Below, piece after piece: positions 19,032-22,754 of a DNA stretch of 45,782 nucleotides; the stretch's first letter is position 1; every line of letters starts with the position of its first letter. The notes beneath the pieces are model-generated. The model ran no database searches. It saw only the letters and a program-made list of their open reading frames with translations, and had not been told where the DNA came from. Source of the stretch: a virus; the UHGV virus genome UHGV-0242872; one strand, given 5' to 3'. The translations under genes and the position numbers were made by a program.

Positions 19032-19058
19032 AAGGCCCCAAACGGGGCCTTTTCTCTA
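19032..19058. terminator. bidirectional intrinsic terminator
   Basis: AAGGCCCC-AAAC-GGGGCCTT hairpin with T-run; closes structural operon and leftward early operon. Confidence 0.75.
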
Positions 19059-19193
19059 CTCTTCTGATAACTTCTCCAGTACAAACGCCAGTTGCGCATT
19101 AGCGGCGTCTCTTTGCTGGCGTAGTCGTAGAACCTCCTCTTCGAGTTCCTTGATACGTTTTTGCAATGCCGGAATCGGGGCTATGATGTTCAT
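19056..19193 (-). CDS. small coiled-coil protein (45 aa)
   Basis: ATG 19193 overlaps helicase stop (ATGA); translation MNIIAPIPALQKRIKELEEEVLRLRQQ... Confidence 0.35.
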   Translation of the reverse strand: MNIIAPIPALQKRIKELEEEVLRLRQQRDAANAQLAFVLEKLSEE

Positions 19194-20614
19194 TTCTTAC
19201 CTCGTCTCTTCATGTAGTTAAGCAACTCTTCCTGTACCGATTTCTTCTCGTCGGTACGCGCGGCAACAACCTCGTCCAGTGTGTCTTTAGCAACGATGTG
19301 ATACAGGAACACCGGGCGTTCGTGGCCTGCCTGCTTCTGGCGTACTGGGCCTATACGCTCGACAACCTGCAAATAGTGCTCAAGATTCCAGCCTTGTGAG
19401 ATGAATGCCAGATGATGCCCGCCGTCCTGTAAATTCAAACCATGCCCGGCTGACGCGGGATGCACGCACAAAATCTCGATTTCGCCACGGTTCCACGCTT
19501 CCATCTGCTTATTACCCTTAGCACCTTTCGCGAATGCCTGCGCCTGCGGGAAACGTTTCAGGATACGCTCCAGTTCGTGCTTGAACTGATAGGCGACTAG
19601 CAACGGCGCACCCTGTAACTCCTCCACAATCGACTCAAGCGCGTCCAGTTTCGTGTCGTGCACTTTCTCCCAGTCTTTGGTTGCTTCGCCGTCAGGCCCG
19701 GACACATATACGGCACCGGATGCAATCTGCAAACACTTCGACGTCTTCGCCGCCGCGTTAGCCGCTTCAACTTCTCCGCTTTCCAGTTCCGCGAATAACT
19801 TCTCTTCCATGTCGATGTAAGCCTGACGCGCTTTCTTCGGCAGGTCGATTTCAACCGGTACGATAATCGGCGCTTCACATCCAAACCACTCAGCGGCGTC
19901 AATCGTGAGACTAATGTCCTTCATCTTCTGGTGAATTTCATTATCTGCACCTGGTCGTGCGTGATACTCACGCGCCATCGCCGATTTTCCTTTCTGTACC
20001 GAATTAAACCAGCGGTCGGTGAATGCTGTATACGACGAACCTAGGCGCTCGCCAGCGTCGATAAACCAGTTCTGGCCCCACAAATCCTTGAGGCCGTTTG
20101 GTGACGGTGTACCAGTCAGGTTAATAAAACGCTTAACCCTTCCGAAAGCCACTTTACTAAGCGCCTTTGCACGCTTGCTACCACCTGAACGGCTGCGGAA
20201 TGATTTAAGCTTCGTGCTTTCATCTGCAACGATAACCGTAAAAGGCCAGTCGTCTTTGCCGTAGTAGTCAATCAGCCACTCGATAACCTCATAGTTCGTG
20301 CAAACCACGTTAGCATCTGACTCCAGCGCCGCGATGCGGCGCTTCTCTGAACCAGTCGCATCTACAACACGCAGACATGGGAATTGCCATTTCTCTTGCT
20401 CTGCAGGCCACGTACCAGACGCAACCCGCAGCGGGGCGAGGATTAACACGCGGTCGTCATCATTAAGTTGGCCGTTTCGGAACAGTCGGTTTAATGCCCA
20501 CAGTACGCTGCCAGTCTTCCCAGCGCCCATGCTTGCCCATATGTTGCAGCGATGGTGCCGCAGCATGAACGAAGTCATGAGCTTTTGGTACTCACGCCTT
20601 TGAAACTTACTCAT
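19190..20614 (-). CDS. SNF2/DEAD-like helicase
   Basis: Walker A GAGKTG, DESTK box, LTGTP motif. Confidence 0.8.
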   Translation of the reverse strand: MSKFQRREYQKLMTSFMLRHHRCNIWASMGAGKTGSVLWALNRLFRNGQLNDDDRVLILAPLRVASGTWPAEQEKWQFPCLRVVDATGSEKRRIAALESDANVVCTNYEVIEWLIDYYGKDDWPFTVIVADESTKLKSFRSRSGGSKRAKALSKVAFGRVKRFINLTGTPSPNGLKDLWGQNWFIDAGERLGSSYTAFTDRWFNSVQKGKSAMAREYHARPGADNEIHQKMKDISLTIDAAEWFGCEAPIIVPVEIDLPKKARQAYIDMEEKLFAELESGEVEAANAAAKTSKCLQIASGAVYVSGPDGEATKDWEKVHDTKLDALESIVEELQGAPLLVAYQFKHELERILKRFPQAQAFAKGAKGNKQMEAWNRGEIEILCVHPASAGHGLNLQDGGHHLAFISQGWNLEHYLQVVERIGPVRQKQAGHERPVFLYHIVAKDTLDEVVAARTDEKKSVQEELLNYMKRRGKK

Positions 20615-21536
20615 TTACCGCCCCCATGAATGCCTTTATAAATTCAGCAGCTACTTGCGGGACGATGGCATTGCCGTAACCGCGCAATCGTCCCACTCTG
20701 GCGGGTATCCCATCAGCCAGCGGGAATGTGCCGGGTTCAACTGGCCTGAATTTTCCATCCCTGCATCCGAGCCAGTCAGCACCTGACCAGAAGCCGTAAT
20801 GCGAATAGGTTGTGTTATTTTCAGCCCCTGCTCCGTCGAGTAGTCCAGCCTGTCGAAAGTCCGGTCCTTTCCGTCCTTGCGAATCACTGTCTCTCCGCTC
20901 CCTCTGTAATCGTTCGCGGTCGGCGTCGCCCATGCCGTCATCGCGGCGGCCCACCCCAGTTTGTTCGGTTTCGTCCTGCCGTCTGTGCTGCGCATGTTCA
21001 CGTCGTTTGTTATCAGTGATACCGCTGGCGTGGGCCAATCTATGCGCGCCGAAGAAAAGTCGGTCGCGTTTGTGCGGTGCGCCGACGCTACAAGCTGGGA
21101 GTACGGCAAACCCGACGGCGTAGTTTTCTCCTTCCAGGTGAGTTTGTAAATCGCACATCCACGATTTTGCAATTGCTGGCGCAACCTGCTCCCCAAAGAG
21201 GACTGGAGGGTGGCACTCGCTGATGAGGTCGAGGAACACAGGTGCGAGGTGTCTCGGGTCGAACTGTCCGAGTTGCTTTCCCGCTGCGCTAAACGGTTGG
21301 CAAGGCGGGCTTCCCGTCCAGAGAGGCGCATCTTCCGGAACTCCCGCAAGTCTGAGCGCGAGGGGCCAGCCGCCGATACCAGCGAAAAAATGACACTGGG
21401 TGAATCCGTCGAGGTCTTCTGGCTTAACTTCAGTAATGCTTCTTTCATCTACAACTCCAAAAGGTATGTGACCCTGTTTTATTAATTCACGCAGCCACGC
21501 GGCTGCGCCTTTATCCCATTCGTTGTAATAGTTCAT
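20607..21536 (-). CDS. DNA (cytosine-5)-methyltransferase, orphan
   Basis: motif I FAGIGG, motif IV SPPCQPFS, ENV-like GEQV, RDR, motif X GNAIV; no restriction partner seen. Confidence 0.8.
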   Translation of the reverse strand: MNYYNEWDKGAAAWLRELIKQGHIPFGVVDERSITEVKPEDLDGFTQCHFFAGIGGWPLALRLAGVPEDAPLWTGSPPCQPFSAAGKQLGQFDPRHLAPVFLDLISECHPPVLFGEQVAPAIAKSWMCDLQTHLEGENYAVGFAVLPACSVGAPHKRDRLFFGAHRLAHASGITDNKRREHAQHRRQDETEQTGVGRRDDGMGDADRERLQRERRDSDSQGRKGPDFRQAGLLDGAGAENNTTYSHYGFWSGADWLGCRDGKFRPVEPGTFPLADGIPARVGRLRGYGNAIVPQVAAEFIKAFMGAVNE

Positions 21537-21724
21537 TTTGCCACCAGTACCAGTTCCTTCCTCCCGAACGCCGTAACGTTTCCAGCTACGTCTTCGATAA
21601 CCAGTTTACCGTTAGACTCGACGAACACCGTATCAACGGCAACAGGACGACGTGTCTTAACGTTGAAAATCATGTCACCCGGTACAATGTCACGTGCAGG
21701 TTTGCGGTCGTATTCGTGTTTCAT
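21533..21724 (-). CDS. hypothetical protein (63 aa)
   Basis: first gene after internal promoter; ATGA coupling to methyltransferase. Confidence 0.45.
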   Translation of the reverse strand: MKHEYDRKPARDIVPGDMIFNVKTRRPVAVDTVFVESNGKLVIEDVAGNVTAFGRKELVLVAK

Positions 21725-21754
21725 TTCTCAATTCCTTATATTGTTGGTGTAGGA

Positions 21755-22042
21755 CTAACTATAATAGTTCGCTATTAGGTCGTCAACCTGTTTAAACGAA
21801 CCGACGACAAAAACATTTGCACCTCTTTTACGCATCCGCTCGTGCTCGCGTAACTGGTGGGGGTCGGGCTTCGTGTTTTCGTCTTTCTTAACCTCAACGA
21901 ACCAGACGATGCCGCCGGGGAGAATTACCAGCAGGTCAGGAGCGCCGGAACGTCCTTCGTAGGAAAGTTTACGAACGAGGCCACCAAGGGCCTCGAATCG
22001 CTCTTTTGCGTATTTCTGTATTTTGCCCTCAGGCGTACTCAT
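21755..22042 (-). CDS. VRR-NUC domain nuclease
   Basis: PD-(D/E)XK-type motif PDLLVILPGG...FVEVKK. Confidence 0.7.
   Translation of the reverse strand: MSTPEGKIQKYAKERFEALGGLVRKLSYEGRSGAPDLLVILPGGIVWFVEVKKDENTKPDPHQLREHERMRKRGANVFVVGSFKQVDDLIANYYS
21758..21786 (-). promoter_or_regulatory. sigma70-like promoter TTGACG-N17-TATAGT
   Basis: minus strand; AATAG-N4-CTATT palindrome 21763-21776 in spacer. Confidence 0.55.
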
Positions 22043-22256: not shown

Positions 22257-22754
22257 CTAGCCCCCGTGATTCTCATGAAAGCCGTAGCGAACAATTGCAG
22301 ATTTCCGCGCACAAGCCGCGTCAAATATATTGTCATGGTGGCCCAAGAATATAAGTCTACCGTCAACGAATATCCCTGCTTTCCATTTAGCCGCCCGTGC
22401 GTTCCAGTGCACACCTGTGAGCCCCGACTTGTTATCTTTTCTCCGAGATGCGTTTCGGTTGTTATCAGTACGCGATACTTTCCGAAGGTTGCATGCACGA
22501 TTATCATCCAGGATGTGATTTATATGGTCTACTTCATCATCAGGACCTAAACGGTCATTGTTATACATCTCCCACGCGATACGATTAGCCCTGTAACTAA
22601 CCCCTCTGACGACGATACAGATGTAGCCCCTCTTACTCGGGCTACCGGCTTCGTCTCCGGCGTTTATACTGTGTCTCGGGGAATACTTCCATCGTATCTT
22701 CCCCGTGTCAGATTCGTAGTAGAAATGGTCATGCCAATTAATTAAATCTCTCAT
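22257..22754 (-). CDS. HNH homing endonuclease with AP2-like DNA-binding domain
   Basis: HNH motif DHINHILDDNRACNLRKVSRTDNNRN, C-terminal AP2-like GVHWNARAAKWKAGIFVDGRLIFLG; GAGGGGG SD. Confidence 0.8.
   Translation of the reverse strand: MRDLINWHDHFYYESDTGKIRWKYSPRHSINAGDEAGSPSKRGYICIVVRGVSYRANRIAWEMYNNDRLGPDDEVDHINHILDDNRACNLRKVSRTDNNRNASRRKDNKSGLTGVHWNARAAKWKAGIFVDGRLIFLGHHDNIFDAACARKSAIVRYGFHENHGG

Follow-up and report, generated by a model that had tools for sequence, protein, structure and literature searches.

The 45,782-nucleotide virus genome UHGV-0242872, the whole of which we call the window, carries on its minus strand a cytosine-5 DNA methyltransferase (C5-MTase) gene that contains a second coding frame. 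The methylase open reading frame, ORF A (20607..21536, stop included), encodes a 309-residue catalytic chain; ORF B (20651..21448, minus strand, stop included), which encodes 265 residues, lies wholly inside it in the +1 frame. We firmly conclude that purifying selection acts on each of these overlapping frames in defined segments, and that it does so family-wide. The layout is that of the Escherichia coli enzyme M.EcoHK31I, so we read ORF A as the candidate alpha chain and ORF B as the candidate beta chain. On the strength of sequence features and this analogy, we consider it probable that the locus encodes an orphan phage-borne alpha/beta C5-MTase made from one DNA stretch in two frames, with ORF B probably encoding the DNA-recognition subunit that is missing from ORF A.

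Both overlapping frames are under selection

Homologous loci, more than 200 in the end, were gathered by frame-A similarity alone, both in viral contigs and in the genomes of bacteria belonging to many phyla. In all of the 161 loci analysed first, a second ORF was found wholly inside the methylase ORF in another frame: the +1 frame was stop-free for at least 223 codons in every locus, with a median of 299 codons (~90% of ORF A), against medians of 63 codons for the +2 frame and 86-122 for the antisense frames. The number of stops to be expected was taken from synonymous-codon shuffles of each gene. From motif VI (FGEQ) to motif X (GNA), we observed 0.00, 0.01 and 0.03 stops per gene in the +1 frame, compared with 0.73, 1.05 and 0.62 expected, respectively; from VDxR to FGEQ, 0.34 were observed against 1.70 expected. 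Before the start of ORF B and after its stop, +1 stops were at or above expectation, and the +2 frame showed no depletion of stops relative to the shuffles.

A substitution map, built from single-nucleotide differences that stand isolated between relatives of at least 80% identity, divides the gene into segments selected in one frame, the other or both. At A codons 30-105, 80% of substitutions are synonymous in A and 14% in B; at codons 106-150, 34% and 46%; at codons 151-165, 85% and 7%; at codons 166-240, 14% and 76%; at codons 241-285, 53% and 46%; and at codons 286-295, 99% and 0%. Codon-position diversity agrees with this map. Over longer distances, among 3843 distant pairs, the middle region was significantly similar in frame B in 49%, in frame A in 10% and in the +2 frame in 3%. 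Frame A is nonetheless still read through the middle of the gene, as the conservation in that frame of its last ~60 residues, GNAIV among them, indicates.

These results change how the middle of ORF A is to be understood. A preliminary description of the window had pointed to a long Arg/Asp-rich variable region of the methylase, corresponding to aa 166-244 (20805..21041, minus strand). This stretch, in which aa 166-240 (75 residues) include 14 Arg, 10 Gly and 10 Asp, fails to align in frame A between distant homologues; that failure, together with isolated substitutions that are synonymous in A in 14% of cases and in the +1 frame in 76%, indicates that the supposed variable region is an unconstrained frame-A reading of ORF B DNA, and we refer to it here as a linker.

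Most database records annotate only ORF A, as 'DNA cytosine methyltransferase', which favours taking the gene for a single-polypeptide orphan C5-MTase whose Arg/Asp-rich segment is the target-recognition region and whose nested ORF is an accident of composition. This account is hard to reconcile with a +1 frame that is open in 161 of 161 loci where about four stops would be expected, with substitutions in the 'variable region' that are mostly silent in B and mostly not in A, or with distant homologues that are alike in their middle region mostly in frame B; we regard it as extremely improbable. A chance open frame, specifically, is excluded by the openness of the +1 frame, the depletion of stops, the distant-pair similarity and the substitution map.

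The catalytic chain lacks motif IX and a conserved recognition domain

The preliminary description had also identified ORF A as a cytosine-5 methyltransferase with motifs I, IV, VIII and X, and this was borne out in part. ORF A is present as described, with 309 residues, and matched Pfam PF00145 (DNA_methylase) with 60.9 bits (cut-off 22; E=1.8e-16), a match that covers only aa 70-183; it also matched phrog_363 over its full length. A family profile built from 41 diverse N-terminal halves aligned to M.HhaI, the monomeric enzyme of the same Pfam family, with E=7e-17 over motif I and motifs IV-VIII, the catalytic core that the two share. Motif I (FAGIGG, aa 51-56; 21369..21386, minus strand, as are all features of the two ORFs) is predicted to bind S-adenosylmethionine (AdoMet), motif IV (PPCQPFS, aa 77-83; 21288..21308) contains the predicted catalytic Cys79 within PCQ (78-80), motif VI (FGEQV, aa 114-118; 21183..21197) is the equivalent of ENV and falls within A codons 106-150, the first stretch to be constrained in both frames, and motif VIII is HKRDR (aa 155-159; 21060..21074). 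Motifs I, IV, VI (GEQ 115-117) and VIII (R157/R159) are invariant or nearly so across distant homologues of ORF A, and in the window motifs I, IV and VIII lie where they had been placed, with the catalytic motifs intact. For motif X, GNAIV is indeed found at aa 288-292 (20661..20675), an assignment made by pattern that received no statistical support in Pfam or PDB searches.

Unlike M.HhaI, ORF A has no in-frame target-recognition domain (TRD) and no motif IX; a chain in which motifs IX and X both follow a TRD was not found in frame A. Nor do its motifs run in the order I-II-III-IV. Nothing between motifs I and IV of ORF A corresponds to M.HhaI residues 34-70, which hold motifs II-III. Upstream of motif I, at aa 3-34 (21435-21530), ORF A instead has YYNEWDK, which matches the M.HhaI motif II sequence 'YSNEWDK', and VDERSI. 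We take YYNEWD (aa 3-8; 21513..21530) as a probable motif II, and the catalytic chain thus seems, from these motif matches, to have a permuted motif order.

One homologue of ORF A, P0226 (479 aa), has ~165 inserted residues that separate 'GKFRPVE' from 'FPLGKEIPARVGRL' within the C-terminal stretch where both frames code.

The nested frame has a candidate start of its own and a conserved C-terminus

The candidate start codon of ORF B (ATG, 21446-21448) follows directly on a frame-B TAG stop in the window and lies 6 nt downstream of a Shine-Dalgarno-like GGAG (21455..21458; context TTTTGGAGTTGTAGATG). Of 195 homologues, 194 have an ATG in frame with B and ahead of its conserved part, typically by ~76 codons, and 164 have a Shine-Dalgarno-like motif. 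The start is not at a fixed place: the ATG formed by the VDER codons was found in only 76 of the 133 genes with that motif, and start positions vary.

Four parts can be distinguished in the predicted chain. The N-terminal part (aa 1-75; 21223-21448) is Ser-rich and unconserved as protein in a frame that is open; it is stop-free in nearly all homologues and shows no amino-acid constraint (14% of substitutions synonymous in B). A conserved segment follows (aa 76-122; 21083..21223; SxALQSSL..GSxxYKLTWKxxxTPxG) which overlaps A motifs VI-VIII and is predicted to form a helix and beta-hairpin, the only part of B that AlphaFold2 modelled with moderate confidence. Two WxTP..D modules (aa 138-180; 20909..21037), WPTPAVS and WATPTAND, are encoded by the DNA that reads as linker in frame A, where there are no WxTP modules; they are spaced ~35 aa apart, and their number, two in the window, ranges from zero to more than ten in homologues. 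Among relatives that differ by a single module, K1G has a 35-codon deletion and P0001 one module more. The C-terminus holds a motif-IX-like element, QLNPAHSRWLMGYPPEW (aa 236-252; 20693..20743), which is the most conserved part of B and overlaps the conserved A segment RPVEPGTFPLADG; in the family this C-terminus is near-invariant (GQLNPAHSRWLMGxPPEW).

The extremes of the family depart from this plan in length. P0315 and P0342 (572 and 577 aa), both homologues of ORF B, carry more than ten WxTP modules each, so the alpha genes that overlap them must hold several hundred codons of unconstrained linker. In P0286 (547 aa) the N-terminal part of the beta homologue contains a Cys-rich insert of ~200 aa that resembles an HNH or zinc-finger domain and has no Pfam hit.

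Motif IX and motif X appear to be divided between the frames

We compared the C-termini of both frames by hhalign with that of M.HhaI, whose sequence had been verified. B aa 233-255 aligned weakly with motif IX of M.HhaI, residues 269-291 (E=0.1). A chimera of the end of B and the tail of A spanned M.HhaI motifs IX-X, again weakly (E=0.0016, 16% probability), and the C-terminus of ORF A by itself gave no sensible alignment to M.HhaI. Profiles of B, of the A C-terminus and of the B-then-A chimera found nothing relevant among PDB sequences or in Pfam. The sequence comparison is thus weak but directional, and suggests that motif IX lies in B and motif X in A, colinear in the DNA in the canonical order.

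That order, A (motifs I-VIII), B (modules and motif IX), A (motif X), is the order within a single canonical C5-MTase, and could also arise if programmed frameshifting gave one chain, passing from A to B (+1) and perhaps back (-1) before motif X, to yield motifs I-VIII, TRD, IX and X, or an A-B fusion. Rare in-frame A-B fusions do occur in databases (P0014, P0043, P0060 and P0084). These fusions, however, join at different points, and either motif VIII or the conserved beginning of B is missing from them; natural indels or faulty assembly could account for them. We found no conserved slippery heptamers at the junctions (6/201 and 11/201 genes), and a T6 run in the window is unconserved. A frameshift would not require B to be open, with an ATG and a Shine-Dalgarno-like motif, ~76 codons ahead of its conserved part, as it is; frame A is itself open and selected at its C-terminus, and M.EcoHK31I consists of two separately initiated chains. 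We consider frameshifting quite improbable, and separate initiation of beta at the internal ATG the better account of the nested frame.

A different possibility is that ORF B encodes a real protein that has nothing to do with methylation. It might bind DNA, act against defences or assist replication, its frame having been overprinted on a linker that a self-sufficient single-chain methylase can spare. Consistent with this, no homology of B to known methylase domains was detected, most of B is disordered in the prediction for B alone, and A keeps motifs I, IV, VI, VIII and X together in one chain. Such a methylase would, however, have to do without motif IX and without a conserved segment where the TRD is expected, whereas B offers a motif-IX-like element in the right order and at near the right spacing to motif X of A. 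Moreover, B was never found apart from the A gene, bar decayed copies, and the only characterised gene of this architecture needs both chains. We therefore judge an unrelated function for B to be unlikely, and favour a beta subunit of the methylase.

We also looked for single-chain relatives in which B-like sequence is in frame with the catalytic domain. The long matches were read-through fusions to the next gene (DUF2800, Dam), carried an HNH-like insert or were very long WxTP arrays. RcKeef was rejected as it is also dual-coded. In Pseudomonas phage PACT201 (L232, 806-2003) the locus is a decayed copy with alpha and beta broken into several frames, and in Erythrobacter phage ZS04 (L234, 1291-1674) there is a B remnant only, a 128-aa ORF resembling the C-terminus of beta that is annotated 'DNA methyltransferase'.

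The nested gene is widespread

ORF B has its own PHROG, phrog_1008. Its homologues numbered 2653 proteins in a 90%-clustered protein set, and it matched 15,925 clusters in a 50%-identity set of 1.84 billion representatives (E<=0.001). The nested-gene family extends from Enterobacterales to Alpha- and Betaproteobacteria, and to metagenome bins of other phyla. Both ORFs are annotated in the 2010 GenBank record of phage K1G (GU196277), as 'C-specific methylase' (ORF31) and 'Mte8-like protein' (ORF30); newer records mostly retain ORF A only. The K1G-like genes are direct orthologues of the two ORFs in the window (PHROG 363 and 1008), with 92-97% nucleotide identity to Golestan, K1ind and K1G, and the records give names only, with no functional link stated between the two. 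A literature search on a family-wide nested ORF or on Kagunavirus methylation found nothing relevant.

We tentatively propose, as a possibility rather than an expectation, that the nested alpha/beta arrangement may be the standard build of a large phage and prophage C5-MTase family (>15,000 protein clusters). In such a family beta would carry target recognition as a tandem series of zero to more than ten exchangeable WxTP modules, specificity and possibly multispecificity would evolve by in-frame gain and loss of modules, the alpha linker would be junk and the alpha motifs would be permuted, with II-III before I. Modular recognition is known from the C5-MTases of Bacillus phages (SPR, phi3T), multispecific phage-borne orphans with tandem exchangeable recognition modules in their variable region. 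Those modules are in frame within one chain, however, and to equate the WxTP modules with TRDs is speculation.

The locus is an orphan within a replication operon

The window is an essentially complete genome of a Kagunavirus (Guernseyvirinae, a K1G-like E. coli siphovirus). Its region 20400-21800 shares 97% nucleotide identity with phage Golestan and 91-93% with K1ind and K1G, and a protein identical to ORF A was found in ENA contigs (P0121). Upstream of ORF A, a 63-aa ORF (21533..21724, minus strand) has a stop that overlaps the ORF A start by 4 nt (ATGA). Downstream, the next gene of the operon encodes an SNF2-family helicase (19190..20614, minus strand), whose start ATG overlaps the stop of ORF A by 8 nt (ATGAGTAA; 20607..20614), just as the preliminary description had it; the overlap suggests that the two genes may be translationally coupled.

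The neighbours of ORF A are replication genes: the 63-aa ORF, VRR-NUC, an HNH_3 homing-type endonuclease, DNA polymerase and the SNF2 helicase. No restriction endonuclease was found among them, the sole nucleases being VRR-NUC and the HNH_3 ORF. The cognate endonuclease of a type II restriction-modification system is not encoded nearby, and the earlier call of an orphan gene stands; what has to be given up is the picture of a simple single-polypeptide enzyme.

Two ORFs in this part of the window are of note. The HNH_3 endonuclease ORF (165 aa; 22257-22754, minus strand) lies between VRR-NUC and DNA polymerase; Golestan and K1G have no such gene there, and the ORF was probably inserted as a homing endonuclease. 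Immediately after the helicase, on its downstream side, a 45-aa coiled-coil ORF (19056-19193, minus strand) gave weak DUF1192/ZapB-like matches below the Pfam cut-offs.

Comparison with two-chain methylases

The chains are close in size to those of M.EcoHK31I, whose alpha has 309 aa and beta 176 aa; alpha here has 309 aa, and the conserved part of beta ~190 aa. M.EcoHK31I, a heterodimeric C5-MTase from E. coli HK31 that recognizes YGGCCR, has the same nested layout as our locus when the two are compared by description (Lee, Kam & Shaw 1995, as set out in PMC2836561 and PMC3404938). Its beta chain is encoded wholly in another frame inside the alpha gene, 'an unusual architecture', and both chains are needed; activity was abolished when mutations that leave alpha unchanged took away the start codons of beta, whereas in vitro beta can do without its first 42 aa (PMC2836561). 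Points of likeness to ORF B are that part of the N-terminus of M.EcoHK31I beta can be spared and that its translation can start at several internal codons. M.EcoHK31I belongs to a restriction-modification pair, whereas the gene in the window is an orphan in a lytic phage.

In reviews, M.AquI and M.EcoHK31I are the only C5-MTases listed as consisting of two polypeptides (PMC3404938). M.AquI, from Agmenellum quadruplicatum, is likewise a natural C5-MTase whose two polypeptides have to associate (PMC3404938), but it is split in the variable region into consecutive chains, with motifs I-VIII in alpha and the rest of the TRD and motifs IX-X in beta; in our locus, by contrast, beta is read from a different frame inside the alpha gene, and alpha retains motif X.

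Several points weigh against a two-chain enzyme of the M.EcoHK31I kind. ORF B had no significant match in Pfam, NCBIfam or PDB sequences, and the assignment of motif IX consists of a short pattern and weak hhalign alignments (E=0.1 with B by itself, E=0.0016 at 16% probability with the chimera). AlphaFold2 models of A and B alone were poor, with mean predicted local distance difference test scores of 45 and 44, and give no structural support, because the alignments were shallow and contained close relatives only. The two-chain reading gives no role to the ~75 N-terminal codons of B, which are open though unconserved. The literature puts the TRD of M.EcoHK31I in alpha, whereas here the inter-motif region of alpha is unconstrained and the variable WxTP modules are in beta. 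Finally, the likeness to M.EcoHK31I considered here is one of layout; a plasmid search for M.EcoHK31I returned only phage-like orphan copies. M.EcoHK31I is supported as a working analogy for this locus, which may or may not belong to its family.

Discussion

The observations suggest how the enzyme might work. Alpha, translated from 21536, would provide the AdoMet-binding and catalytic core (FAGIGG, the Cys in PCQ, GEQ and RxR), followed by an unconstrained hydrophilic linker (aa 166-240) and a conserved C-terminal segment ending in putative motif X. Beta would be initiated separately in the +1 frame, from the internal ATG at 21448 that GGAG precedes by 6 nt, and would comprise the Ser-rich ~75 aa, the helix-hairpin, two WxTP modules and the motif-IX-like C-terminus. 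The two chains may then assemble into an active enzyme, as in M.EcoHK31I, with beta supplying the functions of the small domain, namely motif IX and probably target recognition.

We infer the separate initiation of beta, its assembly with alpha, its part in specificity and a role against restriction. The enzyme has intact catalytic motifs and no restriction partner, and its gene belongs to a replication operon in a lytic Kagunavirus; a reasonable guess is thus that the enzyme acts as an orphan phage methylase that methylates, and thereby plausibly shields, phage DNA from restriction.

The architecture is already known from one E. coli enzyme; in this analysis it was found across thousands of phages and prophages. 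Its reach through the whole family and the likely siting of recognition modules in beta, the out-of-frame chain, merit follow-up. Annotation pipelines call one or the other of the two ORFs, give the nested one the unfounded label 'hypothetical' or 'DNA methyltransferase', and take the linker of frame A for a variable domain. Awareness of the alpha/beta arrangement would allow thousands of entries for phages and prophages to be corrected, and both frames should be cloned for functional work, as alpha alone may be inactive. The locus is also an unusually clean natural case of long same-strand dual coding, with some segments under selection in A alone, others in B alone and others again in both frames, and is therefore well suited to tests of overlapping-gene detection. 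If beta does determine specificity through swappable modules, the family would offer a natural platform for split or retargeted methyltransferases, a use for which M.EcoHK31I has already been explored.

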